Assembly: GCF_022458985.1 (NCBI RefSeq) | Contig: NC_061789.1 | Coordinates: 11,479,707-11,543,706, forward strand | DNA: 64,000 nucleotides | Source of the DNA: Mugil cephalus | Lineage: Eukaryota | Direction: 5' to 3' | Part shown: in pieces, positions 11,917 to 45,848 of the stretch | How positions within the stretch are numbered: position 1 is the stretch's first letter | Layout: each line of letters starts with the position of its first letter | Notes under the pieces: generated by a model | What the model saw: the letters and a program-made list of their open reading frames with translations, nothing else | Databases searched by the model: none | Told to the model about the DNA's origin: nothing | Translations under genes and position numbers: made by a program

Positions 11917-12237
<321 letters not shown>

Positions 12238-23657: not shown

Positions 23658-23688
<31 letters not shown>

Positions 23689-25120: not shown

Positions 25121-25252
25121 TCACGGTGCTGAACCCTGTCCCAACCCTGGCAGCGCCCCCAGCAGGCCGTTGGCCGTAGTGAAGAGGTTTATGGGAGACG
25201 AGCCATCCGTGATGAGGGTGGACTTGAGCCCCAGAGCCTGGAGCATCTTCAC
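25121..25252 (-). CDS. mvp: mvp copy 1, exon 16 (last; stop at 25121-25123)
   Basis: Acceptor cctacag|GTG. Encodes [43 protein letters not shown] (human ...[32 protein letters not shown]...). An AATAAA signal on the minus strand lies at about 25015-25020. Confidence 0.85.
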
Positions 25253-25368
25253 CTGTAGGAAACAAACCACTGTGAGTTTAAAATCCTGCACAAAGTCAAG
25301 GTACTTCTAATGAGCCGCTTTACGTCCTCTCTGAAGTAGATTTTAATTTCTAGTTTTTGGTACGGTAC

Positions 25369-25557
25369 CTGCAGCTCTGGTCCGGCTCTGGCGATCTCCT
25401 TCAGCGTGTCACTGCCCAGACTCTCCACCAGCTTCTTGAAGCGGGCACTTTCGATTTGAGCCAGACGCTCCTGCTTCTCCACCTCCAGATTATCCATCTC
25501 CTTCTTATAGTTGAGCTCCTGCTCACGCGCCTTCGCCAGGCGCTGGAGCTCCGCCTC
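25369..25557 (-). CDS. mvp: mvp copy 1, exon 15
   Basis: Acceptor gtgtgcgcag|GAG, donor CAG|gtaccg. Encodes EAELQRLAKAREQELNYKKEMDNLEVEKQERLAQIESARFKKLVESLGSDTLKEIARAGPELQ. Confidence 0.85.
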
Positions 25558-27029: not shown

Positions 27030-27156
27030 CGCCTCGATCCTTTGAGCCTCTGCCTTCAGTTTGGCCTCGCTGACTGCCGCCTCTCCCTGGATGCGAGCCG
27101 CCTCAGCGCGGGACTGAGCCTCCGCCTTAGCAGCTCCCGTGCTCTCCACCGCAGCG
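27030..27156 (-). CDS. mvp: mvp copy 1, exon 14
   Basis: Acceptor tgtgtttcag|C, donor GCG|gtacgc. Encodes (S)[42 protein letters not shown]. Confidence 0.85.
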
Positions 27157-27269
27157 CTGAAACACAAGCGCCATCGATTCACTGGGACATTTATACTAAA
27201 CAGTTGCATGGACTCAGCCTCATCAGGCTTCATAGTTTAACATCATTCAACATCAAGGTGTGCATTCAC

Positions 27270-27386
27270 CTGAGCGCCTCCAGCTCCAGCAGTTCCTTCC
27301 TGGCTTTCTCCGCCTGGGCCTGGTCGGTGATCTTCTGCCTCTCCAGCTTCCCCCGAGCCTCCTGCTCCAGACGCTCCGCCTCATGT
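27270..27386 (-). CDS. mvp: mvp copy 1, exon 13
   Basis: Acceptor gtgtgcag|A, donor AG|gtgaat. Encodes (R)[38 protein letters not shown] (human [38 protein letters not shown]). Confidence 0.85.
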
Positions 27387-27472
27387 CTGCACACCAACAA
27401 CACGTCATGAAGCCCGGCGGCTTTTCAGCAGCGCTAACCGCTCAAAATCTCAAACTTGTGTGTCTGTGTGAC

Positions 27473-27684
27473 CGTGCGGCCGCCTCCTGGGAGTTGGTGG
27501 TGATCTCGATGGCCAGCTGGACGCTCTTCTGCAGGGCGTCTCGGGTCCTCTGGTCGACAGGCTCCACGGACTGGATGTCCACGCTGCTGATCACCAAGTT
27601 GTTCTGTTTGAAGCAAAGGTTGGGGCGGATCGCCATCTTCTCGTCGAAGCCGAACACAGCGGAACAGATGATCCGGTTGGAGTT
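27473..27684 (-). CDS. mvp: mvp copy 1, exon 12
   Basis: Acceptor tcgtctgcag|AAC, donor CG|gtcaca. Encodes [70 protein letters not shown]. Confidence 0.85.
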
Positions 27685-27809
27685 CTGCAGACGAGACAGA
27701 ACTTAAGATTTAAGAAAGATGTTTCTCTGGAATAAAGGGATATAGATTTTGGTCCATTGTCTACAAACTAGTTCGTCATTTTTTTTAGTAAAAAAACAAA
27801 CACACTAAC

Positions 27810-27954
27810 CTTATGGAAATCATCAAACTGCACCGAGGCGACGGCTCCTCTGATCTTGGAAGCGATGGCTTTACAGGCATCTCCCACAAAGTCAGGAACT
27901 GAAAACAGAGTTGCTGCAGAAGCAGAGTCGGCCGGCAACTTGATGTCAAAGTGC
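27810..27954 (-). CDS. mvp: mvp copy 1, exon 11
   Basis: Acceptor ctcttcag|G, donor AAG|gttagt. Encodes (W)[48 protein letters not shown]. Confidence 0.85.
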
Positions 27955-28052
27955 CTGAAGAGGGAAACACAGTGAAGACCTGTGTTACAGATGATTGTGA
28001 TCATGAAATAGTAAAACCGGAGGTGTTTTCCGGCGTTGGACTGTGTGGTTAC

Positions 28053-28250
28053 CAGTTGTAGGAGAGCTGCAGCTGCAGGCGGGCGTGGTCCGCCGTCTCT
28101 ATGGTGATGATGTCAGTGAAGAAGTCTGGCCCCAGCAGGAGGCAGATGGCCTTGATGACGTTGGGCCTCTTCGGTTTGTCCCCGGACAGCGACAGCACGG
28201 TGAAATGCTCATCGGGTCCCAGCATCACCAAGTCCGGCCCAAACATCACC
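28053..28250 (-). CDS. mvp: mvp copy 1, exon 10
   Basis: Acceptor tgtctgcag|G, donor TG|gtaacc. Encodes (R)[65 protein letters not shown]. Confidence 0.85.
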
Positions 28251-28326
28251 CTGCAGACACAACACGATCAGCTCCTCTATCCAACCTCTACACCCAACAC
28301 CCACACAGTCAGGAGAGACGCCCCAC

Positions 28327-28562
28327 CTGGCTTTCTTCTCTCTGTAGTCGTACACCTGGACAGCGGCGTTGTGAGGGACCCTGTAGGAGACCACCCTGGT
28401 CTTCTCCCTCCGCCCGTCCTCTCCCATATTTTGGCGGTCGGAGCGGTCGGACAGCGGGTCGAGGCGGGCGGCCAGCAAGGCCTCGACCTTTGGAGGAAGC
28501 TCCTTCTCCCACAGCTCCTCATCCTGGGTCAGCATGTAGGTGTGACCGATCACCGCTCGCAC
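28327..28562 (-). CDS. mvp: mvp copy 1, exon 9
   Basis: Acceptor cctctcag|GTG, donor AG|gtgggg. Encodes [78 protein letters not shown]. Confidence 0.85.
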
Positions 28563-28633
28563 CTGAGAGGCCGACGGCACACGGTTAGCTCATAGTCACA
28601 TGAAGCCGGAGCAGAAAACCAGTTAGCTCGCAC

Positions 28634-28864
28634 CTTTCCAGTCTTGTTGTCCCTGACGTAGATCCCCTCGTTCTCGTCCAGGGGGATGGCCTCTTGCCTC
28701 AGCACCACCTCCACCGTGGCGGGGGGGACGTACTCGATGGGGCCCCGCAGCATCCAGCGGTCTCCGGGGCGACGGAGGATGCCGCTCCTCCGGGTGCGCT
28801 TAGGCCTGCTCTCCATGGCCCCCTCCTCTTCCTCCTCCTCCTCCTCGTAGTCCTGCTCCATGTG
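28634..28864 (-). CDS. mvp: mvp copy 1, exon 8 (carries a lineage-specific poly-Glu plus basic insertion)
   Basis: Acceptor tctctgccag|CAC, donor AAG|gtgcga. Encodes [77 protein letters not shown] (human ...[57 protein letters not shown]). Confidence 0.85.
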
Positions 28865-28924
28865 CTGGCAGAGAGAATGGGGCAGAGACAGGAGGGGGGT
28901 GGAAATAAAGGTTAATGTGGGGAT

Positions 28925-28975
28925 GCATTGGCGTGGAGGAGGAGAAGGAGGAGGAGATGGAGGAGGAGAGGGGAT
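28925..28975. repeat. 12-bp minisatellite (ggaggaggagaa)n in mvp intron 7, 3 units here versus 6 in the paralog at 46525-46612
   Basis: Unit 1 reads ggaggaggagaa ggaggaggagat ggaggaggagag. Unit 2 has ggaggaggagaa five times, then ggaggaggagag. Confidence 0.8.
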
Positions 28976-30371
28976 CGGAGGAAGGCACTGATTAAAAACA
29001 ACAGAGTAAGTGAAAAAATAAAGCGATGGAGTAATAAAAAGAAGAAGAAATGAACGGAGGGACGTCGGGAGAGAAACAAAGAAAAGTGTGTGATGAGTTA
29101 GCAGGAAGAAAAAATGAGGACTTTGACACGATGTCACCTGACCCACAGGTGTGTCTCACCTTTCTACCTACATACCAGAGCTGCTTTAAGAACGTACAGG
29201 TGGTCTTTCTTCCAGACACGCCTCTGTGAAAGCACTATTTGATTTTCTAATCTCCTCCACCTGCTGCTTGAGGACCGGTTACACAAGATCAATGGTGCAA
29301 TGTACATCTCCTCCACCTGTCACTGCAGCAGCTCCTCACACAGAGGACGGACGGGGTTAATGTGTTTGAGCTGGGCGTTGACTGTCAGATTCCTGTAGTT
29401 CACCGGGACAAAGTGCGCAAGGGGCGAATGGCAGGGTGAAGAAATCTAAGCCACGCTGCAGTGAAATATGACAGCAGCTCAACCAAGATGCTCCTGCTAC
29501 ATAACAATCAGGGTGACCCCTCTGCTTCCCACCACTTAGTGACAGCAATGTGTCACTCAGTCGTTTAACAAGCTCCAACCCCAAAATGCAGCGTTTTTGT
29601 GCAAATATCGAATCAAAAAGTGTCAAAAAGTCTACATTTTAATTAGACTTGATGTCAATTTCATTGTTCTTTTTATTGTGTTAAACTTTTCTTATTTTTA
29701 ATAGGGCTGGGCGGTATGACAAAAAAATTATTTTTTTGTTCACAACATTTTCTACGGGTTGAGAGAGGAGTTAATACAGGAGATTGACTGAGGATGGACT
29801 ATTTTACTGCGATTATGGGTAAATGTTGGTGTGGAAATTTACAGCTCAGAGATAAAAAACTAATTAAATGTCATTAATATAACATGAAGAAACAAGGACA
29901 ATTATTGTTTCATTTATTTTTACATATTTATTCATATTTAAACTACTATATCTGTAATGTTCATAGCAGCGCAGATGGCTACTGTAATAGTTGTAGTCTG
30001 CGCGCAACATTTTTTTGTCATTCATAAAAGATAAAATTGGGGACACTTCCTGGGATCTCGGTGATAATAAAACCAACTTGAGGCTTTAAACCTGTTCTTG
30101 TTGCAGCTTCGTGTTTCCTGAACTTTTAGCCTGTCTGGCGTCCTGTTGTTTCGTGCAGCTTTACGTACGCATGATGAACCACATTGGTTTCAGCTTGTTA
30201 CACTGTAGTAGATTTGATTCAGTTATTGAAAACAAATCAAACCAACACAGTGGTAACATCTGAATCGCCACCGGGGCCACTTTGTCCCGGAAAAGTTGGA
30301 CCCCGAGGTCAAAAAGTTTGAAGACACCTGCTCTATAGGACGTCCACTTTTCCGAATCAGTCTGCCCTCAC

Positions 30372-30497
30372 CTCCTCGGTGTCGGTGAAGGCCTCCACGG
30401 CTCGCAGCACCAGGCCCTCCTCCTCCGACAGCACGTACACGTCCTGGATGCCCTGTTCAAGATGCTCACCCGGCTGCAGGAAAAAGGAGCGCTCACC
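30372..30497 (-). CDS. mvp: mvp copy 1, exon 7
   Basis: Acceptor cctccttccag|GGT, donor GAG|gtgagg. Encodes [42 protein letters not shown]. Confidence 0.85.
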
Positions 30498-30586
30498 CTG
30501 GAAGGAGGTAGATTAGTGTTTTTTTTGATTGATTGGGTATGTGACTTTACTATAAACACTAAACACTGTATCCGGAGGCATCTCAC

Positions 30587-30823
30587 CTTCACCACCTTCT
30601 TCTTTCCCAGCTGAGGCTTGCCGTCGTGCCCGACCGGGTCCAGGATCACGCAGTACTGCCTGCTGCTCAGGGTGGTCACGTTTACCACGCCCACCACCTC
30701 CTCCGCCACAGAGGGGATGTGGGCCTCCCTGTCGGCCATGGTGACCAGCCACTCCTCCCCCGTGCGGCGGTCCTGTCCGCCGGCGTCTTTGAAGGGCCGC
30801 AGGGCGCGGACGTGCAGCGCTTT
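30587..30823 (-). CDS. mvp: mvp copy 1, exon 6
   Basis: Acceptor gcgcctccag|AAA, donor AAG|gtgaga. 237 nt encoding [79 protein letters not shown]. Confidence 0.85.
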
Positions 30824-31191
30824 CTGGAGGCGCAGCAAAGATATGTCAGACGGTCCGCAGCTGTTTGTGAACGCACCATAATTGAAGTTTCTAAGAGCTG
30901 CGTCCAGGCACATATATAATTAGAAGTGTCTCCGTCATAAAGATGCTGCTGAGACGTTAATAACCACTGTTTTATCTACAATCCTGTTCTCAACCGTTCT
31001 GTTGTTTATTCACTTCTGGGTTTGTAAAATAGGAAGTAGCAAGAAATCTATGTCACAGTTCCGCAGTTTTTTTATACATGTCACCTGAGCCACATAGTGG
31101 TAACCACATGATTCTTACTTGGCCGTGAAAACAGGAAGTGGCCTCTATCTTTACAGCAAGTGGAAACAGAAACAGATGAAGCGGAGAGTCA

Positions 31192-31286
31192 CCTTGTCGG
31201 TGAGGATGAAGGCGTTGACGATGTCGATGACCTCCTCGTGAGCACCTGGAAGGTACGCGCCCACTTTGCAGACCAGCCACTCGTCG
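31192..31286 (-). CDS. mvp: mvp copy 1, exon 5
   Basis: Acceptor aaatgtgcag|GC, donor AAG|gtgact. Encodes (G)[31 protein letters not shown]. Confidence 0.85.
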
Positions 31287-31437
31287 CCTGCACATTTAGC
31301 CACGAGTGGGAAAAAAAAAACGTGACAGGAAGGAGAAGAGAAAGAAACCTTAAATCTTTGTCTTTCTAATCTATTGTTGGTATTATGTGAAGTGTTCTGT
31401 GTGAAGAAAGTTTGATTTTTGTGTGTGTGTCTGTTAC

Positions 31438-31569
31438 CTGTGACCCTCTGGACTCCGCCTCGGTCTTTGCCCTCCTTGCGAGCTCTCAGCCTGATGGCCT
31501 GGTTCTCTCGGATCACTGTGGCCTTGATGGTCTCCAGAACCGCCACCTCCTTCCTGGGGATGTAGGTCC
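31438..31569 (-). CDS. mvp: mvp copy 1, exon 4
   Basis: Acceptor ttcttccag|GG, donor ACAG|gtaaca. Encodes (G)[43 protein letters not shown]. Confidence 0.85.
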
Positions 31570-31821
31570 CTGGAAGAAAACCAGATGTTGTTAGTGGGGA
31601 TCTTTGGGTCCTATGGGTTGAGGGGAGGGGCCTCTGTGGGTCATCTCACAGATACTTGATCAGTTTGGGATCTGGTGAATTGGATTTCAGGAACGATGGG
31701 GCTGATCTGTTCAGAAATCTGGAGGAAAAATATTCCTTGGGGAAAACATCAAGAATAAAAGAAAGTGACCAAAAGGCTTGAAGATGCACTGAGAGTTTTT
31801 CCAGGAGCTGTGGGATCCCAC

Positions 31822-31945
31822 CTGGTCCTTCGAACAACCACTCGTCTCCGGCCACTCTCTTCTCCCCTCCCGCCTCCTCAAAGTCCAGCAGAGCCTGCAG
31901 ACGCAGCGCCGTGTCCGGATACACGATCTGCAGAGGTGTCGGATC
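31822..31945 (-). CDS. mvp: mvp copy 1, exon 3
   Basis: Acceptor ttctccttcag|GAT, donor CCAG|gtggga. Encodes [41 protein letters not shown]. Confidence 0.85.
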
Positions 31946-32073
31946 CTGAAGGAGAAAAACAAACAAACAAAAAAAAAGATTACCTTTCTCAACGTAGTTT
32001 CTCTTTATTTAAAGACTGACTTTTATTCTAATCTTTTGATTACAATAATCTAAAGCCTGGTTTCCATGCCAAC

Positions 32074-32269
32074 CTTCTGGATCTCCTCTCCTGGGTACAG
32101 AGGGAACGGGTCCTGCGTCAGGCGGATCTCCAGGTCGGCGTGACGCAGCTTGGCTTGACCCGATTGGTCAAACAAAACCTGGCCGTTGTCGTCACGGGCA
32201 ACGGGGTTGGCGATAACGCAGTAGTGACGCGGTGCAACCATCGTCATACGAACCGGTAAAAAGAGCACT
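32074..32269 (-). CDS. mvp: mvp copy 1, exon 2
   Basis: Acceptor ttttttaacag|A, donor AAG|gttggc. Encodes (R)[65 protein letters not shown]. Confidence 0.85.
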
Positions 32270-32408
32270 CTGTTAAAAAAGAAAAAAAAGAAACTGATGT
32301 TAAATTCTGATTTGAATAAGAGATGTGAGACACTGACTGGAAATGGAGCTGAAACTACATGAAAGACAATCAAACTCCAGCAGCTACAACACAGAGAGTC
32401 TGTCCCAC

Positions 32409-32527
32409 CTCTCATTGTCCTGGCGGATGTAGGTGAGTGGTCCAACCTCCACGCGGGCGATGTTGGTGTTCTGGTCCAGGACGTGGATATAGTGATGAGG
32501 AGGGATGCGGATGATGGATGCATCCAT
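32409..32527 (-). CDS. mvp: mvp copy 1, first coding exon (start codon ambiguous)
   Basis: Donor GAG AG|gtggga. The ATG at 32525-32527 gives [39 protein letters not shown] (human [41 protein letters not shown]). In-frame ATGs also lie upstream at 32537-32539 (MEAL, not conserved in the other copies) and 32570-32575 (MMSKK...). A candidate acceptor cctgtgcag sits at 32588-32596, so the true start may be [12 protein letters not shown]..., which would put the exon's upper end near 32575-32587. Confidence 0.7.
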
Positions 32528-32639
32528 CAGGGCTTCCATCTCAGGCCCACGGTTTCCACCCTTCTTAGACATCATGGCAAAGAAACGCTGCACAGGAACA
32601 GAAACATGTGGAGGGCTTTAGGTCCACGCCATGTACGGA

Positions 32640-33180
32640 TTCCACTGAACACCCCGACCCCTACGGCTAAACTGACTGTTGATACGAACACAGACAAAAG
32701 AAGCAAGTACGAACAGACAAAGAATGCAAAAAAAAAAAGATTCAAAAAGACACAAAAAAAGACCCCAAACACACAAAAAATTATCATCAAGTTGCAAAAA
32801 GCAGCCACAACGACACAAATAACCAGAAACTGACAAAATACAATGACAACAGATGAAAAAAACAAAACTCAATAATGAAAATACAATGTGGGCACATAAA
32901 ACACCCACAAAGATAAAAACACAAAAAAACAAAACAACTTCAAAGATGCAAAAGAAGCACACCTGGTAATATCTAAAAAACAACCTCAAAGTTGAAAAAA
33001 AATAAGATCTCAGACACAAAAACAACCACAAGAAAGTAGAAAACCCCACAAAGATGCACAAAACAACCACTACAAAGCCAAAAAAGATCTCAAAGACAAA
33101 AGAACAACCAAAAACACATAGAAATGCAACAGAAGGAGAAAAAAATATGTAAAAACAACAACAACAAAAAACATTAAAGG
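32640..33180. repeat. A-rich low-complexity tract (degenerate CAAAAA/ACAAAA repeats) immediately 5' of mvp exon 1
   Basis: Visible as caaaaagacacaaaaaaagaccccaaacacacaaaaaatt... and it generates the spurious F/L-rich minus-strand ORFs 32572..33070. The paralogous tract is at about 50290..50830. Confidence 0.7.
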
Positions 33181-34780
33181 GTCTTTATTCTTTTATGCGC
33201 CAATATTCATCATTGTGAATGAATGTGTGGATGTTCTGTCTCCATATCTCAACCACGAGTCTAACTGATGACAGATCAATGGACGACAGATTAACTGAGT
33301 TTATAAGACAAGCTCTGGTTTCATTCATTTTTATCAGTTTAAAGTCAACTAAACAAAGTTGAGCGTGTCCACTTGGGTGAACACTGAGATCACAGAGAAG
33401 TGCAAGAAAAAAAAAAAAGAACAGAGACACACCTTGGTGCAAAGTCAACCCCAGACGGGTTTATCTCGTTTATCTTGTGACACAATCGACGATTGTTGCT
33501 GATTGAATAGTACGAGTCAGTTTACTGAGCATCAGAACGACATCTGAGCGTCAGCAAGACACAATCTGGGGCCAGTAACCAATGGGACGGTCGATGGGAA
33601 AATAAGACGGGGAAATAATGTGATGGACGTCTGTTGCAAATGCGTCAAGAGAAAATGTCATGAATCAGCTCTTCTCACCGCTATCATAAAAGTCTTTAAG
33701 AATACATGCAGCTCATGTGACAAACACGAATCAGTGCATCAATAGAAAAATCAAAAAGACTTAATCGGAATCTACCTGGACAACGTATGTGCATGTAAAC
33801 ACGTAACTCCGACTAAAATCAGAGTTCTCTTTATCCAATTAAGACGCCCAGATAATGTGATTGGAATTCGGTTTTCTCTGCCATGTATACGCCTTAATCA
33901 GACTACAATCGGATAACGCATGTTGCTCCACAACCGCTGCACTGGCACGTGACCCCTGAACAAAAACATTGAAGAAAGCCGATCGCAGAAGAAGTTATTA
34001 GATTTTTTTTTCGGTGCATGTAAACTCGGACAAGGACTGTAGTCAGAAAGTCGAGTTTTGAGCATAGCTCGGTTAAGCTCTGCATGTAAATGCACTGACT
34101 GTTTGGACTCAGCCCATTCAAGGCTGCATGGCTCCTTTTGTTCCCCAGACAAAGAAGGTCTTTGAACTCAACCTCCCAGCAGCCTTCACCTTTTTACACC
34201 TAGGTGTGAAACCTCCACTCTTGACCCCCATTGGTCACTGTGTGGCCAAAACCTCTGAGGTCATCGAGCCAATAAAAGGGGGGGGGGCGCTTCCCCTTAC
34301 TCTCTTCTCTTAAGCTGTATTTCCATACACAGCCTACCTCTACACCACTGCGCACCACAAACTTTAAATCGACATTTCCGTTGATAGAAGGTGGGCCAAA
34401 CGAGGCCAAAGGGATACTTTTCCAGGACTTAAAAGTACCTCCTCTGTGGTTGGGCCGAAGTAGGTGAATTGGAGTTGAAAATGTGAAGTAAAATGCTGCT
34501 TACTACTGATTGGTTAGAAGAAAAAAAAAATTGTCACGATGCAGCGCCAGGTACAAAGCTGGATGTTTTGACCAGACGGACACTCCTAAGCAATGGAAAA
34601 GGTAGTTAAAAAAAGGTGGTGAGATGTGGAGTTGTTTAGCGGTAGGCTGCATATGGAAATCTGGGCCTAGTTAGCTTATCTTGCACATAACTTGACCAAG
34701 CATAGAATACTTCAACCTTGCCAATGTATGTATTGATTGAAACTGGTAAAATACTTTAGCTCATGACTGTTGTCTATAGA

Positions 34781-34952
34781 CCAGTGTTTCCCAGTCCTGC
34801 ATGTTTTAGATGTTTTCCTCCTCCACCACACCTGATTCAAATGAGTGGCTCGTTATCAGGCCACTGATCATTTGAATCAGGTGTGTTGGAGCAGGAAACA
34901 TCTAAAACATGCAGGGCAGTGTTCCTCGAGGACCAGGATTGGGAAACACTGG
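34781..34952. mobile_element. hAT-like palindromic MITE (172 bp) with 8-bp target-site duplication
   Basis: Termini CCAGTGTTTCCCAGTCCTG...CAGGATTGGGAAACACTGG are perfect inverted repeats, and the whole element is a near-perfect hairpin. It is flanked by TCTATAGA (34773-34780) and TCTATAGT (34953-34960). The paralog at 52385-52556 has a TIR point change (CCGGTG). Confidence 0.7.
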
Positions 34953-35442
34953 TCTATAGTCTATAGTCAGTAAACCTGTAACTTGAATTTGAAAATCGTG
35001 GTGAACAAAGGACACACCTTTGTTCCCCTCACATCACATGTTGGCCTTAGCGTCCATCATGGAGACCAGTTGTTTGTAAACCTCTTTGTCTCTGGACCTT
35101 TCGCATTGTTTCCCTCACATAGACACTTGGCTTCTTCACACTAACACACACATATCCACATGTGTACATAGTTAAGTGTTTAAAGTTTTGTTATTTCAGT
35201 TTTTAGATGTGTCGGATAAAATTCCTTGAAACTTGAAACGTTGCTCATCTGTTAATGTTGTAGAGGAGTGAATGTGCCAACCTCTACACTGTAGAACCCT
35301 TGAATCCTTCAAATTTGCTACTATTAATAAGGTAATATTGTTTGTGATTATTAAGTTAATTATTAAGTTAATTAACAACATTCAGTGTTAATAGTTAGCA
35401 AACCCACCTTTATGAGACAGATTTGTTAAATAACTGAATTTT

Positions 35443-35565
35443 GATTAATTTCTGACTTTTAATTCTTCATATGTCAGTGATGGCATCACAATTTTTCATA
35501 AAAAAATAAAATAAAATAACATAAAAACACTGACATATAAAGGGTTAAAAGTCAGAAATTTATCA
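35443..35565. repeat. Imperfect palindrome, MITE-like (~37-bp arms at ~85% identity around a ~48-bp A-rich spacer)
   Basis: Left arm gattaatttctgacttttaattcttcatatgtcagtg; the right arm cactgacatataaagggttaaaagtcagaaatttatc is its reverse complement. The deletion junction of truncated copy 3 (38722) maps to the inner edge of the right arm. Paralog at about 53043-53165. Confidence 0.55.
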
Positions 35566-36197
35566 AACTTTTGGTATTATACTTAGTAAAGAAGTGGATT
35601 AAATGATTCAGGTTAAAAAGTAGAAAAAAATATTGAATTAAATATTATATTAAATTAAAATATGCTATATAATATGCTTCAGGGCATTTTTGTCCCTTAA
35701 TGGTAACAACGTAATAATTTTATAATCAGGTATGAGGATTAAATTCTCCCTGAAGCAGAATAAATAGGTGTGTATGACTTTTACTTGGAAACCCTCCCTC
35801 TGAGGTCATTAAACAGCTGATTCATGCAAAGGCAAAAATACACTCCAAAGAGCCTGCTCCTTTCTAAACCATGGTCCGGACGAATCTCAACAGACAGTAC
35901 GCATCTTTACATTGCATCCTGGTTTACACTCAACACCAGTAAACAGCAAACAAAAAAAAGAAACTGCCAAACCACTTCCGCATGATATACCTCAACGACA
36001 AACTGCATGAGAAATAGTGTTCATGTAAATTCCCAGGCCTCGCAAAAGACAAACATTGACATTTATACGATTTACAGGCTTTAGGATTTACATAAATGTT
36101 TCATATTTATTTTTAATATTTAACCCGTGAATCCAAAGGGAGATTGCAGAGAAGAGTTGTGGAGAAGACGCACTCGGAAATTGCTCCAGCGTCTTAC

Positions 36198-36355
36198 CTG
36201 TGCTCTTTGCGGCTGTACGGGAAGACGTGCGGCCGAATCCGGGCGGAAAGAGTCAATTTTAAGAAAATGAGAATAAGTTCACAGAGTAAGAGGCCGCAGA
36301 CGGAAAGGAGATTCGTCTGACGGGAAATGTGTGTCGTGTGGGCGTCAGCAACAGT
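36198..36355 (-). promoter_or_regulatory. mvp: Candidate mvp promoter and non-coding first exon (element Y, copy Y1)
   Basis: The minus strand reads ...GCCGCACGTCTTCCCGTACAGCCGCAAAGAGCACAG|gtaagacg with a consensus donor. Just upstream lie CACGTG, TGACGgg and GC-rich motifs. It sits 3.6 kb 5' of the mvp exon 1 acceptor, and human MVP also has a non-coding first exon. The element recurs four times, always 5' of an mvp copy or fragment. Confidence 0.35.
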
Positions 36356-36900
36356 CACGTGGGTAAAAAAATAAATATAGAAAATAAATGAGAAAACATT
36401 TATGAGACAACATAAGAAACGTAGACAGTCTTCAGATACTTATATTATACGGTCTCCTTATGAATAAAAGAAAAGTTCTGAGTAATTTTTAATTATCGAG
36501 CAGCGATTAGTTAACGTGACTTCCGCTTTCGAGATCCGGCGGAATAAAGACATTTAACAGCCTACTGAAAATAAATTTCCTTTTATGAACTTGCACTTGG
36601 AATATTTAGTAACTTACAATTGGAACATTTATTAAATAACAATTTTTTAAAAATATAGTTGAATTTTATGTTTTTTTTTTAATTTTTATTAAAATGTTTA
36701 TTATTCTTATCTGTCATTTTATTATTCTTACTTATGTGATTATTTCCAAAAATATATATACATTGACATTATTTTTAAAATATTATCTATCATTATTATT
36801 TATAATTTGTTATTGTTTTTTAAAATATACATTTTGTTTAATCTCACGTACCCCCTGGAGTACCTTCAAGTAGTATATACGGTCAATGATACCCCCAGGA
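36356..36900. repeat. AT-rich element A', second copy of the mvp 3'-flank element at 23740-24260 (also at 41340-41860 and 53950-54480)
   Basis: Shared string gaaatatagaaaataaat...aacgtagacagtcttaagatac...cgagcagcgattagctaacgtgacttccgctttcgagatccggc...gaacttggacttggaatatt... The Y1|A' boundary at about 36355 marks the older tandem-duplication junction. Confidence 0.7.
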
Positions 36901-37084
36901 CATTTTGAGAACCATGATCTCCATACATCCACTGAATATCACCCTACTGTATACCCACTGTTGTAGTTGATTTTAAGTAGTGCAAGTATTTTAAACTTTG
37001 TAAAGAAAGTAGAACGTTCCATAAATAAAAAAAATAAAAAAAAAAGAGAGAAAACACCTCAGTAAAGTGTCAGTTTTTAAAATT

Positions 37085-38722
37085 GTTAAGTATACCAGCA
37101 GCAGTACTCGATGGGGCCCCGCAGCATCCAGTGGTCTCCGGGGCGACGGAGGATGCCAATCCTCCCCCGTGCGGCGGTCCTGTCAGCAAAGATATGTCAG
37201 ACGGTCCAAAGGAAGGAGAAGAGAAAGAAACCTTAAATCTTTGTCTTTCTAATCTATTGTTGGTATTATGTGGAGTGTTCTGTGTGAAGAAAGTTTGATT
37301 TTTGTGTGTGTGTCTGTTACCTGTGACCCTCTGGACTCCTCCTCGGTCTTTGCCCTCCTTGCGAGCTCTCAGCCTGATGGCCTGGTTCTCTCGGATCACT
37401 GTGGCCTTGATGGTCTCCAGAACCGCCACCTCCTTCCTGGGGATGTAGGTCCCTGGAAGAAAACCAGATGTTGTTAGTGGGGATCTTTGGGTCCTATGGG
37501 TTGAGGGGAGGGGCCTCTGTGGGTCATCTCACAGATACTTGATCAGTTTGGGATCTGGTGAATTTGATTTCAGGAACGATGGGGCTGATCTGTTCAGAAA
37601 TCTGGAGGAAAAATATTCCTGGGGGGAAAACATCAAGAATAAAAGAAAGTGACCAAAAGGCTTGAAGATGCACTGAGAGTTTTTCCAGGAGCTGTGGGAT
37701 CCCACCTGGTCCTTCGAACAGCCACTCGTCTCCGGCCACTCTCTTCTCCCCTCCCACCTCCTCAAAGTCCAGCAGAGCCTGCAGACGCAGCGCCGTGTCC
37801 AGATACACGATCTGCAGAGGTGTCGGGTCCTGAAGGAGAAAAACAAACAAACAAACAAAAGATTACCTTTCTCACAGTAGTTTCTCTTTATTTAAAGACT
37901 GACTTTTATTCTAATCTTTTGATTACAATAATCTAAAGCCTGGTTTCCATGCCGACCTTCTGGACCTCCTCTCCAGGGTACAGAGGGAACGGGTCCTGCG
38001 TCAGGCGGATCTCCAGGTCGGCGTGACGCAGCTTGGCTTGACCCGATTGGTCAAACAAAACCTGGCCGTTGTCGTCACGGGCAACGGGGTTGGCGATAAC
38101 GCAGTAGTGACGCGGCGGAACCATCGTCATACGAACCGGTAAAAAAAGCACTCTGTTAAAAAAGAAAATAAAAAAACTGATGTTAAATTCTGATTTGAAT
38201 AAGAGATGTGAGACACTGACTGGAAATGGAGCTGAAACTAAATGGAAGACAATCAAACTCCAGCAGCTACAACACAGAGAGTCTGTCCCACCTCTCATTG
38301 TCCTGGCGGATGTAGGTGAGTGGTCCGACCTCCACACGGGTGATGTTGGTGTTCTGGTCCAGGACGTGGATGTAGTGATGAGGAGGGATCTGGATGATGG
38401 ACGCATCCATCAGGGCTTCCACCTCAGGCCCACGGTTTCCGCCCTTCTTAGACATCATGGCAAAGAAACGCTGCACAGGAACAGAAACATGTGGAGGGCT
38501 TTAGGTCCACGCCATGTACGGACTCCACTGAACACCCCGACCCCTACGGCTAAACTGACTGTTGATACGAACACAGACAAAAGAGGCAAGTACGAAGAGA
38601 CAAAGGATGCAAAAAAAAGATTCAAAAAGACACAAAAAAAATATCATAAAGATGCAAAAAGCAGCCACAACGACACAAGTAACCTGAAACCGACAAAATA
38701 CAATGACAACAGATGATGGAAA
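37085..38722 (-). pseudogene. mvp: Truncated mvp 5' fragment (copy 3): exons 1-4 with introns, ending in a mosaic junction
   Basis: Exon 1 is 38292..38411 ([10 protein letters not shown]...), exon 2 38152..37957 (VPPRHYC), exon 3 37829..37706 ([13 protein letters not shown]), exon 4 37452..37321. Intron 4 continues down to 37212. Then 37105-37157 copies an exon-8 interior piece, 37158-37184 an exon-6 interior piece and 37185-37207 an intron-5 piece, followed by the AT-rich element. Retained intronic pieces argue against a retrocopy. Confidence 0.8.
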
Positions 38723-39568
38723 AAGAACACTGACATATAAAGGGTTAAAAGTCAGAAATTTATCAAACTTTTGGTATTATACTTAGTAAAGAAGTGGATT
38801 AAATGATTCAGTTTAAAAAGTAGAAAAAAATATTAAATTAAAATTCTCCCTGAAGCAGAATAAATAGGTGTGTGTGACTTTTACTTGGAAGATCTCCCTC
38901 TAAGGTCATTAATGCAAAACAGCTGATTCATGCAAAGGCAAAAATACACTCCAAAGAGCCTGCTCCTGTCTAAAACACGGTCCGGATGAATCTCATCAGA
39001 CTGTACACATCTTTACATTGCATTCTGGTTTTGTTGTATATTGATGCGCTGAAGAAAGAAGTGATCACCGCTTAAAAAGGTTTATTTACAAGAAAGAACA
39101 ATGTCAAAAACTCAGCCGAATCTGAGAGGGCTTCTCGTTCAGCTCCACCATACACACACAAAACTTATGTCCTTATATCTGGTTAGTTTTAAGATCTGGC
39201 ATTTGGTAAATGACTTTTTGACCTCAAACATACACACTTTATACACACTTCACATACACAAAAGGGAAAGAAGAGAAAAACAAGAAGATAATTTACTACA
39301 GTTTCCACTCAACATCCGCAAACCAACAAAAGAACCTGCCAAACGACTTCCGCATGATAAACCTCAACGTCAAACTGCATGAGAAATAGTGTTAATTAAA
39401 GTCCCAGGCCTTGCAAGAGACAAACATTGACATTTATACGATTTACATGCTTTAGGATTAACATAAACGTTTCATCTTTATTTTTAATTTTTAACCCGTG
39501 AATCCAAAGAGAGATTGCAGAGAAGAGTTCTGGAGAAGATGCACTTGGAAATTGGTCCAGCGTCTTAC

Positions 39569-39780
39569 CTGTGCTCTTTGCGGCTGTACGGGAAGACGGG
39601 AAGACGGTCGGCTGCTCAAGCGAATCCGGGCGGAAAGAGTCGATTTTAAGAAAACGAATAAAAGTTTACTGAGCAAGAGGCCGCAGACGGCGAGCGAGGG
39701 GGAGATTGTTCTCTGTTACCGGAAGAGGAGGAGAGGTCGCGTCAGTTTCTGGGTAGTAGCAGTGACGTAGGACGTATTTC
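39569..39780 (-). promoter_or_regulatory. Element Y copy Y2, 5' of truncated mvp fragment copy 3 (candidate promoter plus non-coding exon)
   Basis: Shares the CAAAGAGCACAG|gtaagacgctgg donor, with upstream ccggaag (ETS-like) and gtgacgtaggacgt (CRE-like). Carries a 30-bp insertion relative to Y1. Confidence 0.3.
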
Positions 39781-40910
39781 AGTAGCTCAGGAAATCTCCT
39801 AATCTCCTAATTTATAATCAGTTAGTCCCTTAGAATAAATATCTGTAAGTTATTTATTTTATTATTATTATTTTTAAAAACTTTATATAACAATGGCTTA
39901 CTCATTTTTGACACTTTACTCATAATTAACATTTTAAAAAGCCTTTATTCTGGCACAAGAGCACACAACAAGATTAAGGGTATTACTTCTGACAAATATT
40001 CAATCAGTAAATACGAACAGATGACAGACCACATACAGTCTTAAAACGTCAATGAATTATATAAAAGATGTCAATAGTAGTGTCATGTGAAAGAAATGAT
40101 GCATTCAAAAATTAAAATAGTGCACTTGGACTGATGACGCATGGGTAAAAACTTAGTTTAGTTTATTTCGAACATGTTAAAAGCAAACAAAATAATCATA
40201 CACCATACAAGGGACATAAAGAACCTAAACAACAAAAAGAAAATGAAAAATAAAGTTAAAATTACAGATTTTACATGACCAAAAAGAAGTGGAAGTACAG
40301 ACTTATTTTATCCCACCCCTTCTTAATAGATCAATAGTATTTGTATATTTGTATAATCATAGCAATATTCTGTTTTGAAATCTGTGTTTGTGCCTTCTTC
40401 ACTGCTGCACAGGTCTTCCACCCTTCTCCCCATTCATGTGTCGAGGCTTTTTAAGGTGTCTCCTAAAGCCAATGATTAGTTCATTTTCATTTATTTGGAC
40501 TACTTATGGGCCCAAACAAAGAATGACAGTATGTATAGACCATTGGGAAAATCTGGATATCCTAAAGCAAAATGCCAGGCATCACTTTATATTCAGTTTG
40601 AAGTAGCTCAGTCTCAGTAAAAAACTTAAGAAAAAATAAAACACAGGCTCAGGATAACATTATAGATATTTAATGGGTAAACAAACAATTCAGCTGAGAG
40701 GACAAAGAATGCACAAAACAAGGGGGAATATCAAAAGAAAAGCACGCACACAGATAACATCCAGCTCCAGTTTAACCCTTACATGTTTAATTCGTTTTAT
40801 AAACCACTATTTTAATGTTTTTCTGTCAAAGATATTGTTTATCCAACTAGAACAGAGTAAAATAGAATATTTCTCAATATGAAGCATTGTGTGAAAGGTT
40901 TAAAATGATT

Positions 40911-41100
40911 GCTTAAAGAGAAGTTAAATAAGGTGACACAAAATAACGTAAAACTTTTAATGAAGTTCATCATGTTTATCGTTTCAATGCTGGCCAGTGG
41001 AGTTCATCAGGGAATGATGTTGGGTCTTCTTTATCTTCATTTTTTTTCTATGAACTTCTAATTATTTTTTTCAAAAGAAGTTCTTCATGATTAAATCTTC
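40911..41100 (+). mobile_element. Degenerate reverse-transcriptase fragment from a LINE/non-LTR retrotransposon, just inside the unit 1 | unit 2 boundary
   Basis: Encodes ...SMLASGV(H/P)QGMMLGLLYL..., a decayed version of the RT motif GVPQGSVLGPLLF. The paralogous ORF 58465..58647 reads MLASGVPQGMMLGLLYLQFF. Confidence 0.45.
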
Positions 41101-44100
41101 TAATTTAAGGTTATGAACCACCGATGAGCTACAGTTCATCTTTCCAATGGTTCAGCTAAGAAACAAAATCTATGTTTTATATCCAAGATTTGTCTTGAGA
41201 GGATTTCTACTCTTTTTCTGTAAAGGATAATCATTTCACCATGTCACGCCATCTTGCAGGAATTCATCGTGCACGAACGAATACTGCTGCTGATTTTTTT
41301 TTTAAATTACTCCGACGTCGCTAGCCATAGCTAGAGGGCACGTCTGATAAATAATAAAAAATAGTAATAAAAAAGAAATACAGAAAATAAATTAATGAAT
41401 ATACAACATAAGAAACGTAGACAGTCTTAAGATACTTCTATCATACAGTCTCTTTATGAATAAAAGAAAAGTTCTAAGTAATTTTTAATTATCGAGCAGC
41501 GATTAGCTAACGTGACTTCCGCTTTCGAGATCCGGCAGAATAAAGACGTTTAACAGCCTACTGAAAATAAATTTCCTCTTATGAACTTGGACTTATTTGG
41601 TAACTTACAATTTATTAAATAACTATTTTAAAAAAATATTACTGAATTTGAATTTTATGTGTTTTTTAAAAAAATATTTATTAAAATATTCATTATTCTT
41701 ATCTATCATTTTATTATTCTTATTTGATGATTTAAAAAAAATGTATACATTGACATTATTTTTAAAATATTATCTATCATTATTATTCATAATTTGTTAT
41801 TGTTTTTTAAATATACATTTTGTTTAATGTCACGTACCCCCTGGAGTACCTTCAAGTAGTATATACAAAAAAGAGAGAGAAAACAACTCAGTAAAGTATC
41901 CGTTTTTAATATTGGTAAGTATACCAGCAGCAGCAGCAGCAGCACACAGGTCTTAACGTAGGAACAACAGCACTTTTTAAGGCAAAGAGAAAAACTACAC
42001 AACCTCCACCACAGAAGTAGAAATGCTCAATACAGACTATACGTTTATATTTGTTAATTTCTGTGGCTATAGTGCAAAGCAGAAAGGGAAATCTTTGGCT
42101 TTTAGGTGTCAACAAAGTAAACAAAAAGTTATGAAGTTTTTAGGCACAATTATTCCATTAACAGCATCAGTTCACGGACACATCACATGTTGTCAGTTCT
42201 GCTCTGTCAAAACTCAGAGTCTCATTTCTTCTGTAAAGTAATGATCAGTAACAGTGAACATCGCGTCTACGTTGTACAACCTGGAGAAAATAAACCAAGG
42301 ACGTGAGTCTGCTTCCCTGCTCCGTCTGAAAGTGTGTCATCTAATAAACAAACAGCAAATTTTATTTTTAGAGGTCTGACATTTTTATGCAGAGAGTGAA
42401 ATGCGTTTTAATATTAGACGACCCACTTTTATGTAAGAACAATGAAACAGTTCCTTTTATTTCTCATGCTGAGTTTTGAACATAGAATTTTGATTGTAGA
42501 GAAGCAGTGAATCTAAGGATTCAGTAACTTCCTGGTTATATAAACTGGACAAACTTTGTTTAATTTTTCTGATCCAAGCATAAGATAGAAAGTATAGAAA
42601 AAAGGGTTTTCTTTTAAGCTTGTTTGTTTATTTTAATTGTTCACGCTGTACATTTGCATGAACATAATTCTAGTAAACATTACTTGTGGCGTGGTCAGCT
42701 TTTTTATTTTTATATTTCCCCTCCCCTTCCTCACGGTGCCGAACCCTGTCCCAACCCTGGCAGCGCCCCCAGCAGGCCGTTGGCCGTAGTGAAGAGGTTT
42801 ATGGGAGACGAGCCATCCGTGATGAGGGTGGACTTGAGTCCCAGAGCCTGGAGCATCTTCACCTGTAGGAAACAAACCACTGTGAGTTTAAAATCCTGCA
42901 CAAAGTCAAGGTACTTCTAATGAGCCGCTTTACGTCCTCTCTGAAGTAGATTTTAATTTCTAATTTTTGGTACGGTACCTGCAGCTCTGGTCCGGCTCTG
43001 GCGATCTCCTTCAGCGTGTCACTGCCCAGACTCTCCACCAGCTTCTTGAAGTGGGCACTTTCGATTTGAGCCAGACGCTCCTGCTTCTCCACCTCCAGAT
43101 TATCCATCTCCTTCTTATAGTTGAGCTCCTGCTCACGCGCCTTCGCCAGGCGCTGGAGCTCCGCCTCCTGCGCACACACACAGAAAAAAAAAAAAACACA
43201 GATGAAAACAAACTTCTGATTAAATCATTTTGGTGACCGACATGCTGTAGAGATGAAAGTCATATGTACTTAACAGAGCTTTAAGGTTGGCATTAAACAA
43301 AACGTGCAGCCGATTATCCCAGCGCATGCTGTTGTGGGCGGAAGTAGAGATGGTAGTGTATGTTATCGAGCTTACTGTCCGGTGGGAAGACAGAGTTGAG
43401 GAGGCTAATGAGCGCGAGAGAGCTCGATATTCAGAGATGGCAGCAGAAGCTGAGCAGCGAGGGTAGAGCGACTGCGTGCGGCCGGTGGAGGTGGGTTGCC
43501 GTGGAACCCACCATCTCCTGTGTGAGCTGGGCATTCGTGGGAGAGAACAAAGGGTGACATGTCCCTGGCAGCAGAGCGATCAAGTGAGTGGCTGTGGCTG
43601 AGGAGGAAACATGCTAGCTGGGGAGCATGCTGGGGAGCAAGGTTAGGCTAGCTGGTTTTAGTAGTTAGTAGTAGGGCTAAGCTAATCTCTCGGTTGAAAG
43701 TTACACGGTTGTGTGGTGGCAGCATGGAGAGGGGGCCCCCCAAGACACTGGAACTTACTGTTCAGCCTTCTTGAGGTGTCGTGGGCCTTAACAAAACATC
43801 GGTGAAGGGAGGTGCCCACTTGAAAACCCCAAAGATGTGTCGCATACTGCCTATTGCCGTTGGCTAGGCTAGTTAGATGGCGTCTTCTTGTTGGTTGCTA
43901 ACCGGTAGCTGACAGCGAGCCTGCTGGTCGGTTTTTCAGTTGGACTGGGCTTCTAAAGTCAGCCCTGGATGCCTAAATATTGAGCAAAAAATGACCATAC
44001 TCCATCAGTTTATTTTTAAGAAGGAAAATAAAGCAATGCAAGCAATTTTCTACCTAAATAAAATTGCCAAAAAGCAAAAAATTTCCCCTTGCTGACAAAA

Positions 44101-45432
44101 AGAACTTTTTTTTAATTAGTATTTTTTAAAGAAATTTCTTTGAAATGCCCTAAAACATTTAACACCTCGGCAGGCTTTCTGTGACCTCCAAACCACCACA
44201 CGACCCAACATCCACAGGCCCAATTTCCCTATTTTTGATATGAAAATTAGGTTGGTTGGAAATTTAGTTTTTGTAGTAGCGACACAGCCAAGTCGTTTCA
44301 GCATCTCAGAGGCGTGCAGTAAGAGACATGCAGCAGCCCACAGTTATCCACTGAAAAGCTGCCAACACCGGCCGGGTTCTTATTCTTGTACTTACCATTA
44401 CCATTTCGTTACAGTACTCCATCCTCTTTTCTACCTACAAAGTCTTCTGAAATCCAGTTCCTCAAATTATTCTCCTCCTCCTCTTGCGTCTACTCCTGTT
44501 GATTCTATCACTCCCAGCTCCTCCTTTTTTCACAGCTGCTAATTATTGGCATCTCTACATCAGTCGTACCAGCAGCTCCGGTGTATTTTATTGAGCTCAT
44601 GCGTGGAGTTTTATGCTAAGAACAGTAAGAGTGGGCGTACCGCCTCGATCCTTTGAGCCTCTGCCTTCAGTTTGGCCTCGCTGACTGCCGCCTCTCCCTG
44701 GATGCGAGCCGCCTCAGCGCGGGACTGAGCCTCCGCCTTAGCAGCTCCCGTGCTCTCCACCGCAGCGCTGAAACACAAGCGCCATCGATTCACTGGGACA
44801 TTTATACTAAACAGTTGCATGGACTCAGCCTCATCAGGCTCCATAGTTTGACATCATTCAACATCAAGGTGTGCATTCACCTGAGCGCCTCCAGCTCCAG
44901 CAGTTCCTTCCTGGCTTTCTCCGCCTGGGCCTGGTCGGTGATCTTCTGCCTCTCCAGCTTCCCCCGAGCCTCCTGCTCCAGACGCTCCGCCTCGTGTCTG
45001 CACACCAACAACACGTCATGAAACCCGGCGGCTTTTCAGCAGCGCTAACCGCTCAAAACCTCAAACTTGTGTGTCTGTGTGACCGTGCGGCCGCCTCCTG
45101 GGAGTTGGTGGTGATCTCGATGGCCAGCTGGACGCTCTTCTGCAGGGCGTCTCGGGTCCTCTGGTCGACGGGCTCCACGGACTGGATGTCCACGCTGCTG
45201 ATCACCAAGTTGTTCTGTTTGAAGCAAAGGTTGGGACGGATCGCCATCTTCTCGTCGAAGCCGAACACAGCGGAACAGATGATCCGGTTGGAGTTCTGCA
45301 GACGAGACAGAACTTAAGATTTAAGAAAGATGTTTCTCTGGAATAAAGGGATATAGATTTTGGTCCATTGTCTACAAACTAGTTTGTAATTTTTTTTTTA
45401 GATACTCTGGGTAAAAAAACAAATGCACTAAC

Positions 45433-45577
45433 CTTACGGAAATCATCAAACTGCACCGAGGCGACAGCTCCTCTGATCTTGGAGGCGATGGCTTTACAGG
45501 CATCTCCCACAAAGTCAGGAACTGAGAACAGAGTTGCTGCAGAAGCAGAGTCGGCCGGCAGCTTGATATCAAAGTGC
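45433..45577 (-). CDS. mvp: mvp copy 2, exon 11 (His to Arg at the conserved FDDFHK motif)
   Basis: Copy 2 reads GAT GAT TTC CGT AAG (FDDFRK); copy 1 and human have FDDFHK. A 28-bp intronic deletion lies just 5' of this exon, at about 45580. Confidence 0.75.
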
Positions 45578-45650
45578 CTGAAGAGGGATGATTGTGATCA
45601 TGAAATAGTAAAACCAGGAGGTGTTTTCCGGCGCTGGACTGTGTGGTTAC

Positions 45651-45848
45651 CAGTTGTAGGAGAGCTGCAGCTGCAGGCGGGCGTGGTCCGCCGTCTCTAT
45701 GGTGATGATGTCAGTGAAGAAGTCTGGCCCCAGCAGGAGGCAGATGGCCTTGATGACGTTGGGCCTCTTCGGTTTGTCCCCGGACAGCGACAGCACGGTC
45801 AAATGCTCATCGGGTCCCAGCATCACCAAATCCGGCCCGAACATCACC
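45651..45848 (-). CDS. mvp: mvp copy 2, exon 10 (Phe to Leu: [12 protein letters not shown] against [12 protein letters not shown])
   Basis: Copy 1 has cacggtgaaatg, copy 2 cacggtcaaatg. Phe is conserved in human (GPEEQFTVLSLS). Confidence 0.75.

Follow-up and report, generated by a model that had tools for sequence, protein, structure and literature searches.

Four copies of a short element, here called Y, lie 5′ of the major vault protein (mvp) genes and gene fragments in a 64,000-nucleotide stretch of grey mullet (Mugil cephalus) DNA (the window). This arrangement raises the question of whether Y carries the mvp promoter and a non-coding first exon and, if so, what is made from the mvp copies that are truncated. 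The answer that we favor, with a probability of roughly 75%, is that Y represents the core promoter plus non-coding exon 1 (∼150–200 nt) of M. cephalus mvp, and that it is present four times as a result of two nested tandem duplications.

A tblastn search of the window with human MVP as the query locates mvp sequences at four places, all on the minus strand: two full-length copies and two 5′ fragments. The nearest protein matches for these genes are the M. cephalus “major vault protein-like” isoforms X1 (XP_047427480/81/82) and X3 (XP_047427484; XP_047427484.1), each of which is 887 aa long. Both proteins match the window at 100%, and all of their introns are canonical (GT-AG); perfect mapping of the two is found only in unit A, the first of two long repeat units described below. 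The three accessions for X1 correspond to three transcripts with a single encoded protein, a pattern that alternative UTR exons could produce. A search of the literature on Mugil MVP found nothing, and an Rfam scan of the whole 64-kb window yielded zero families. The mvp coding features that matter here are the following, where ^ marks a splice junction.

25121–32575, minus strand: coding sequence of the unit-A full-length mvp, with 16 coding exons, all GT-AG, matching isoform X1 at 100%.
32409–32587, minus strand: first coding exon of this copy, with the acceptor ...ttcctgtgcag^CGTTTCTTTGCC and the ATG at 32575.
38292–38470, 50052–50230, and 55891–56069, minus strand: twins of this first coding exon.
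37321–38458, minus strand: unit-A 5′ fragment, consisting of coding exons 1–4 (aa 1–206) with ORF and splice sites intact.
54920–56057: unit-B twin of this 5′ fragment.

The four Y copies align well with one another, and all are on the minus strand. Their positions and main landmarks, together with a block in the adjoining intron, are listed below.

35738–36361, minus strand: Y1. The E-box and putative non-coding exon 1 span 36198–36361, with CACGTG at 36356–36361 and the donor CAG^GTAAGA, so that the exon ends at 36198.
38837–39770, minus strand: Y2, which precedes the unit-A 5′ fragment and holds a 287-bp insertion at 39031–39318. The corresponding part spans 39569–39770, with the donor at 39569, TTCCGG at 39719–39724, and CTACGTCAC at 39762–39770.
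53337–53960, minus strand: Y3, the unit-B twin of Y1. The corresponding part spans 53797–53960, with the donor at 53797 and the E-box at 53955–53960.
56440–57321, minus strand: Y4, the unit-B twin of Y2 and the copy nearest to the upstream neighbor gene, caskin. The corresponding part spans 57173–57321, with the donor at 57173, CTACGTCAC at 57313–57321, and a 53-nt deletion within the putative exon.
36140–36161, minus strand: conserved intron-1 block CA(C/G)AACTCTTCTCTGCAATCTC, ∼30 nt downstream from the Y1 donor.
39511–39532, 53739–53760, and 57115–57136: twins of this intron-1 block.

An earlier note on this DNA had described four copies of an ORF-less segment that ends in a consensus splice donor, and the alignment bears this description out. 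The donor 16-mer GAGCACAGGTAAGACG has exactly four matches in the 64 kb, one per Y copy, and the junction GAGCACAG^GTAAGACG is invariant among the four, with exon ends at 36198, 39569, 53797, and 57173. The putative exons are 155–196 nt in length and contain neither an ATG nor a meaningful ORF. The boundary proposed for the first copy (36355) needs a small correction, since the E-box that had been assigned to it starts one base farther on.

Downstream from each Y copy there is an identical acceptor, ttcctgtgcag^C, located 12 nt before the mvp ATG, and the string formed by this acceptor and the start region, TTCCTGTGCAG^CGTTTCTTTGCCATGATG, occurs exactly four times in the window. Joining each donor to the next acceptor would define an intron of 3.6 kb for Y1 and Y3 (36197–32588 for Y1), which is the distance to full-length mvp given in the earlier note. 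For Y2 and Y4 the intron is 1.1 kb (39568–38471 for Y2) rather than the 0.9 kb suggested for the truncated copies, and the Y copies that precede truncated genes are the second and fourth, not the third and fourth. The 287-bp insertion, which is common to Y2 and Y4, lies in the intron part of the element. Y1 is the putative first exon for the unit-A full-length mvp, which it would serve through the 3.6-kb intron.

Other identities for Y were considered and rejected. It is not a transposon, given that only four copies are present and all are accounted for by two duplications. It is also not an exon of another gene or a bidirectional promoter, because it has no ORF and no plus-strand gene is present before the next mvp unit.

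Other fishes provide a way to examine whether mvp begins with a separate exon. A polypyrimidine tract and a CAG acceptor are present 0–17 nt before the mvp ATG in eight of the eight teleosts examined (the mullet, C. esox, Clupea, Poecilia, Osmerus, Oreochromis, Parambassis, and Trachinotus). This uniformity suggests that a spliced 5′ leader is the rule for teleost mvp genes, and an acceptor conserved directly before the ATG requires an exon upstream. For tilapia (Oreochromis niloticus), such an exon is evident in RNA. Seven independent RNA-seq contigs that encode the exact MVP protein have their 5′ UTR at positions 3077/3107–3278 of the tilapia locus (L006), and from there they jump across a 6.7-kb intron to a site 16 nt before the ATG. 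These contigs establish a non-coding exon 1 of 170–200 nt in this species. The Logan contig L005 has a 5′ end that resembles a retained intron and gave no information on this point.

The tilapia exon shares several features with the mullet element. Both lie between caskin and the mvp ATG, are 150–200 nt long (3077–3278 in tilapia), and lack an ATG, and both end in a G^GTAAGA donor that is followed by a CAGAACT..CTCT..AA.CTC block, with the acceptor 12–16 nt before the ATG. The tilapia donor reads GAG^GTAAGACCCTG, with CAGAACTTTACTCTGAAACCTC ∼27 nt later, and mullet Y reads CAG^GTAAGACGCTG and then CA(C/G)AACTCTTCTCTGCAATCTC; an equivalent arrangement is present in C. esox. When the window and seven genomic loci were searched with a strict 22-nt version of the intronic motif, matches were found only after exon-1 donors (one in tilapia, one in C. 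esox, and four in the window). The block is also recognizable after the donor in Trachinotus and Parambassis. There are differences as well. The tilapia exon body cannot be aligned with that of the mullet. The four mullet copies, whose introns measure 3.6 kb or 1.1 kb, also contrast with the single tilapia copy and its 6.7-kb intron. Tilapia also lacks the canonical CACGTGAC that is seen in mullet Y1 and Y3 and in four other species.

A profile HMM was built from the donor regions of the mullet, tilapia, and C. esox (an icefish). It finds a single match upstream of mvp in Trachinotus (E = 2e-18) and likewise in Parambassis (E = 1e-9). The multi-species alignment reveals a conserved E-box, (A)AA(C/T)CACGTGA(C/G). 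In C. esox, Poecilia, Parambassis, and Trachinotus, CACGTGA is located 121–206 nt upstream of the GGTAAGA donor, and the corresponding distance in Y1 is 163 nt. The tilapia RNA contigs begin in the region that corresponds to this E-box. Y homologs are detected only by the donor-anchored multi-species profile. Searches with nhmmer and blastn, in which Y1, Y2, and the region upstream of Y2 were used singly against the DNA upstream of mvp from C. esox, Clupea, Poecilia, and Osmerus, gave no match, and a Smith–Waterman comparison of Y with tilapia exon 1 scored no better than shuffled sequence.

The location of Y2 and Y4 can be judged from the neighboring caskin gene, whose final coding exon is at 60885–61008. 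Two related features mark the caskin side of the mvp units.

40628–40710, minus strand: block resembling the end of a caskin 3′ UTR, conserved with C. esox, in which ATTAAA is followed by a U-rich tract.
∼58180–58260: original of this block.

The copy at 40628–40710 probably represents the terminal part of the caskin 3′ UTR, which the younger of the two duplications brought along. We rejected the idea that it is the real promoter, because it has ATTAAA and a U-rich tail, is spaced from the caskin stop codon as expected, and can be aligned with the matching C. esox block. The younger duplication also copied ∼1.5 kb of upstream DNA, including this caskin 3′ UTR tail. Y2 and Y4 are located ∼1 kb downstream from the caskin poly(A)-like blocks, on the mvp strand. 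Only ∼2.2 kb separates the caskin poly(A) block from the fragment ATG, and this interval is all that is available for exon 1 and intron 1 of the ancestral mvp and for its promoter, so the position of Y2 and Y4 fits.

We considered whether Y could be intergenic DNA that was simply carried along, with no promoter or exon function, while mvp starts elsewhere. The link between Y and mvp in the mullet is based on sequence, and homology searches with single sequences failed; both points favor this explanation. However, the profile relates the element to the exon 1 junction that RNA verifies in tilapia, the geometry of the E-box is conserved, the conserved acceptor demands an exon upstream of the ATG, CpG dinucleotides peak at Y (see below), and the short distance between caskin and the fragment ATG leaves little room for a start site elsewhere. 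For these reasons, a functionless Y is extremely improbable. From the acceptors, the tilapia contigs, the intronic motif, the HMM matches, the E-box, the CpG peaks, and the position, we conclude with fairly high confidence that Y is orthologous to percomorph mvp exon 1 and the proximal promoter. The central proposal of the earlier note, that Y combines the mvp promoter with a non-coding first exon, gains support from the alignment with the percomorph exon 1/intron 1 junction and E-box and from the tilapia contigs.

The sequence motifs that might promote transcription are not distributed evenly among the Y copies. CACGTG, TGACGT, and CCGGAAG had been listed as motifs of the element, and each is present, but the list is a union over copies. 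The E-box CACGTG is found only in Y1 and Y3 (36356–36361 and 53955–53960), TGACGT and CCGGAAG only in Y2 and Y4, and the related TGACGC in all four. In Y2 and Y4, the E-box has been altered to TACGTC (within CTACGTCAC), a change that is derived relative to the outgroups. A second conserved motif, TTCCGG(T/G)A, lies downstream from the E-box. It takes the form TTCCGGTAA in Y2, Y4, and C. esox and TTCCGGGA in Trachinotus and Parambassis, and it is missing from Y1 and Y3 owing to a 14-nt deletion. In a comparison with STAT/GAS-like sites, TTCCGGTAA is one mismatch away from TTCNNNGAA.

The first exon of human MVP is non-coding. The human gene has 15 exons and a TATA-less promoter, in which STAT1, p53, GC-box, and E-box sites are arranged from proximal to distal, and USF1 activates the promoter via the E-box (PMC7916137). 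The fish order, with the E-box followed by TTCCGG(G/T)A nearer the exon, resembles the human order, although this likeness is a motif resemblance alone. No sequence homology is seen between the two, and human MVP is a single-copy gene. The mullet copies also differ in having AT-rich, TATA-like sequence upstream: Y1 and Y3 are now preceded by an AT-rich sequence, R′ (described below), that includes the TATA-like TATATTTAT, with the TATA-like stretch ahead of Y1 at 36371–36379, and the DNA upstream of Y2 has TATAAAT at 39810–39816.

The ratio of observed to expected CpG forms a local peak of 1.0–1.6 at all four Y copies, compared with 0.64 for the window and ≤0.5 for the flanks. Such peaks are expected for DNA that is kept unmethylated in the germ line. 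The homology between Y1 and Y2 ends a few bases upstream of the E-box, indicating that the four copies share the exon but not the upstream sequence. The exon part is the most diverged piece in the Y1–Y2 comparison, with 21% substitutions plus indels versus 8% in the adjacent intron. This level of divergence is normal for 5′ UTRs and is also compatible with the decay of some copies. On the basis of the exon divergence and the 53-nt deletion in Y4, some Y copies may indeed be decaying.

These observations bear on a rival explanation, in which only one promoter class works (either Y1/Y3 or Y2/Y4) and the other is a silent relic whose exon is rarely or never used. Each class has lost one conserved motif: Y1 and Y3 are without TTCCGGTAA and without the ancestral upstream DNA, and Y2 and Y4 have a mutated E-box. 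The rapid divergence of the exon relative to other Y segments and the Y4 deletion point in the same direction. However, the CpG ratio remains at least 1.0 in all four copies despite the 8%–21% difference between Y1 and Y2. Moreover, transcription has to start 5′ of 38458 for isoform X3 and 5′ of 32575 for X1, and the coding exons of the fragment have been under purifying selection (see below). We consider it unlikely that a single class accounts for all mvp transcription.

The same pattern of losses could have another meaning. Y1 and Y3 keep the E-box and lack TTCCGG (STAT/ETS-like) and the upstream DNA, and Y2 and Y4 show the reverse. If this reflects complementary degeneration of the two promoters, then two differently regulated N-terminal variants of MVP could be made. 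Coding exons 1–4 are present as two sets, each permanently coupled to one promoter, and both sets appear to be under purifying selection. We regard this scenario as quite doubtful. If it is true, the variants would differ at seven residues in domains that form the waist of the vault, and they could co-assemble in vaults.

A CpG-rich island, CCGGATCTCGAAAGCGGAAGTCACGTTA, is present in otherwise very AT-rich DNA at 36505–36550 (in R′) and at 23900–23950 (in R, the 3′ flank of mvp), as well as in the unit-B twins of both. It contains an ETS-like site and an ACGT core and hardly varies among the four R copies. Its distance from the Y1 E-box, which is downstream, is ∼150–190 bp. In a blastn search, the island was not conserved in other species.

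The coding exons linked to Y2 and Y4 reveal what the truncated copies might produce. The fragment matches the N terminus of X3 at 100%. The X3 path uses fragment coding exons 1–4 (38458 to 37321) and then continues in frame to full-length coding exon 5 at 31287 and onward. Thus, the RefSeq annotation already handles the unit-A fragment as an alternative 5′ end of full-length mvp, as is clear from the fact that X3 starts with the fragment coding exons. X1 and X3 differ at seven residues (aa 13, 23, 40, 68, 119, 131, and 146), all of which are encoded by coding exons 1–3. Because coding exon 4 encodes the same amino acids in the fragment and full-length copies, X3 might instead switch copies after exon 3. 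X3 is a Gnomon model, and making it means skipping four good acceptors of the full-length copy, including the strong one at 32587.

Reading frames and splice sites of coding exons 1–4 are intact in all four sets. The full-length and fragment sets of unit A differ by 7.5 non-synonymous and 11.5 synonymous changes, and the pN/pS value of 0.21 argues for continued purifying selection on the fragment coding exons. Given that X3 starts with these exons, the truncated copies are probably transcribed, as the earlier note had suspected. Judging from the annotated model, these copies probably are not pseudogenes but look like an alternative 5′ cassette of the neighboring full-length gene.

The product that had been proposed, namely ∼190 aa of MVP fused to junk, is not supported in that form. 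In X3, the reading frame continues from exons 1–4 into coding exon 5, and the protein is an MVP of 887 aa that carries seven N-terminal substitutions. The alternative in which the fragments are stand-alone units, with Y driving an N-terminal MVP of ∼200 aa that is fused to junk, or a non-coding RNA, nevertheless has some grounds. Read from the coordinates, a transcript that joins fragment exon 4 (phase 1) to the 32587 acceptor would encode 206 aa followed by AFLCHDV*, and short N-terminal MVP-like proteins are annotated in other fishes, such as those of Thunnus and Scomber that carry an Ifi-6-16 domain. Against this explanation, the annotated X3 runs in frame from the fragment into coding exon 5. 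The fragment also lacks its own terminal exon, and a mutation has changed its candidate poly(A) hexamer. Transcripts with a premature stop codon of this kind are expected to be degraded by nonsense-mediated decay. In addition, a protein search of RNA assemblies for short mullet N-terminal MVP ORFs found none. We judge the stand-alone scheme to be very unlikely, and the 206 aa plus AFLCHDV* product, which differs from the annotated isoform, to be a possible by-product.

The N-terminal MVP-like proteins of Thunnus and Scomber (P0251, P0254, P0270, P0271, P0274, and P0280) are annotated as “major vault protein-like,” are 268–299 aa in length, and combine N-terminal vault repeats with Ifi-6-16 (PF06140). 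Truncated 5′ copies of tuna and mackerel mvp have apparently been captured into chimeric genes. A different rearrangement is seen in Clupea harengus (L002, 9487–9901), where three tandem copies of the 3′ part of mvp coding exon 1 are present (9487–9661, 9696–9758, and 9839–9901). The annotated mvp CDS of this species starts downstream from these tandem copies.

The proposed organization of the mullet locus is reminiscent of UGT1A and the clustered protocadherins, in which tandem 5′ units with their own promoters share downstream exons to yield variants that differ only at the N terminus. The X1 and X3 models fit this scheme. The mullet unit, however, is a cassette of five exons, namely exon 1 and four coding exons, and there are only two variants per unit, which are seven residues apart and are known here from protein models. 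The mullet arrangement also departs from the definition of variable first exons, which have no 3′ acceptor, so that only the one nearest the cap is spliced in, because the downstream coding exon 1 has the strong acceptor at 32587.

The four copies of Y can be explained by the duplication history of the locus. Self-comparison of the window identifies a 17.6-kb tandem duplication comprising unit A (∼23600–41217) and unit B (∼41225–58775), which are 97.4%–99.0% identical. An older, partial duplication is nested within each unit: The segment 31327–32856, which contains coding exons 1–4, is found again at 37210–38716, and Y at 35738–36361 recurs at 38837–39770. Two further features of unit A record the older event.

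36366–37103, minus strand: R′, a copy (88%–92% identity) of the mvp 3′ flank R (23756–24325), located directly upstream of Y1.
37104–37180, minus strand: leftover pieces of two further coding exons in the fragment, ∼20 nt from exon 6 and ∼55 nt from exon 8, fused to R′.

From its sequence and location, R′ is best read as the junction mark of the older tandem duplication. The exon 6 and exon 8 remnants imply that the fragment is what later deletions have left of an originally complete copy. Taken together, R′ upstream of Y1 and the exon remnants indicate that the older event was a tandem duplication of E-box, exon 1, mvp, and R, which was followed by deletions in the upstream copy. The 5′ breakpoint of this duplication lies a few bases upstream of the E-box, which left Y1 and Y3 with the exon and the E-box but with no ancestral upstream DNA. 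This DNA is retained by Y2 and Y4. Coding exons 5–16 were then lost from the upstream copy, leaving Y2 and coding exons 1–4, and its candidate poly(A) hexamer has changed: ATTAAA (24302 in R) is TTTAAA in R′. Finally, the younger 17.6-kb duplication doubled the entire arrangement to create units A and B.

Not all segments of the older duplicates have diverged to the same extent. The introns within the duplicated block of coding exons 1–4 (31327–32856 vs. 37210–38716) differ by 0.8%–4%, versus ∼8% for R, the intron part of Y, and the Y extension. The low intron divergence suggests either gene conversion between the fragment and full-length copies or a separate history for this block. Sequence variants are spread as a mosaic among the four copies. 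The full-length copies have an additional ∼2.9 kb in intron 1 (32856–35738 and 50505–53337) that is absent from the fragments and has a strong A/T strand skew. A search of the extra sequence at 32856–35738 for tandem repeats found nothing notable.

The unit-B full-length mvp carries a 1-nt deletion in a run of five G residues in coding exon 6 (48218–48453), at ∼48.39 kb, which changes ACGGGGGAGG to ACGGGGAGG and shifts the reading frame. This is the only disabling change in the unit-B full-length copy, and it may be either a real pseudogenizing mutation or a homopolymer error of sequencing or assembly. A loss of this type is typical of sequencing errors, and with the 97.4%–99.0% identity of the units over 17.6 kb and the perfect mapping of both annotated proteins to unit A only, it raises the concern that the unit A/B repeat is an assembly artifact (for example, uncollapsed haplotypes) and that only Y1 and Y2 are real. 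The junction between the units at ∼41217–41225 is clean and unique, however, and divergence of 1%–3%, with indels that include the 53-nt deletion of Y4, is more than alleles usually show. The mosaic pattern of variants in the units also argues against an artifact, which we consider rather improbable. A related ambiguity exists in Parambassis ranga, where two loci on one chromosome (L014 and L015), ∼150 kb apart, encode an identical 862-aa MVP and have the same neighbors (caskin-like and CD225). These loci represent either a large segmental duplication or an assembly duplication.

The preferred interpretation of Y as core promoter and non-coding exon 1 leads to a specific model for expression of the unit-A genes. 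From the promoter-type signals and the isoform models, we infer where transcription starts and which copies are active. Transcription would begin at or near the proximal E-box region, and the 5′ UTR exon that ends in CAG^GTAAGA would be spliced to the acceptor 12 nt before the ATG. Y1 is most likely the promoter for the standard mRNA, which encodes isoform X1. Y2 most likely drives a read-through transcript in which fragment exon 4 is joined to full-length coding exon 5 to give X3. The altered poly(A) hexamer and the loss of the 3′ exons would let Y2 transcripts run into the full-length copy.

The gene architecture described here is ordinary and its duplication history instructive, and the gene models are already in RefSeq. 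These results locate, for a percomorph fish, both the promoter of mvp and its 5′ UTR exon, which is of value mainly for annotation and evolutionary history. The conserved proximal E-box and the intron-1 block are candidate regulatory elements. The locus is probably also a compact natural case in which a partial tandem duplication created an alternative promoter plus an alternative N terminus. Vault biology is unchanged unless the two N-terminal variants prove to be differently regulated and functionally distinct.

Several other features were observed in the flanks of the mvp units. Just beyond R, at 23590–23680, a run of 27 A residues is followed by CCTGACGTCCCG^GTGAGTAGG, which resembles a splice donor. 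The unit-B copy lacks this segment, which may be an exon or promoter of a neighboring gene or the tail of a retroposon. Downstream from mvp, long blocks within 11125–22107 are conserved with Parambassis and Trachinotus. This region includes a CD225-family (PRRT2-like) gene at ∼11.1–13.8 kb and several strongly conserved blocks at 15.4–22.1 kb.
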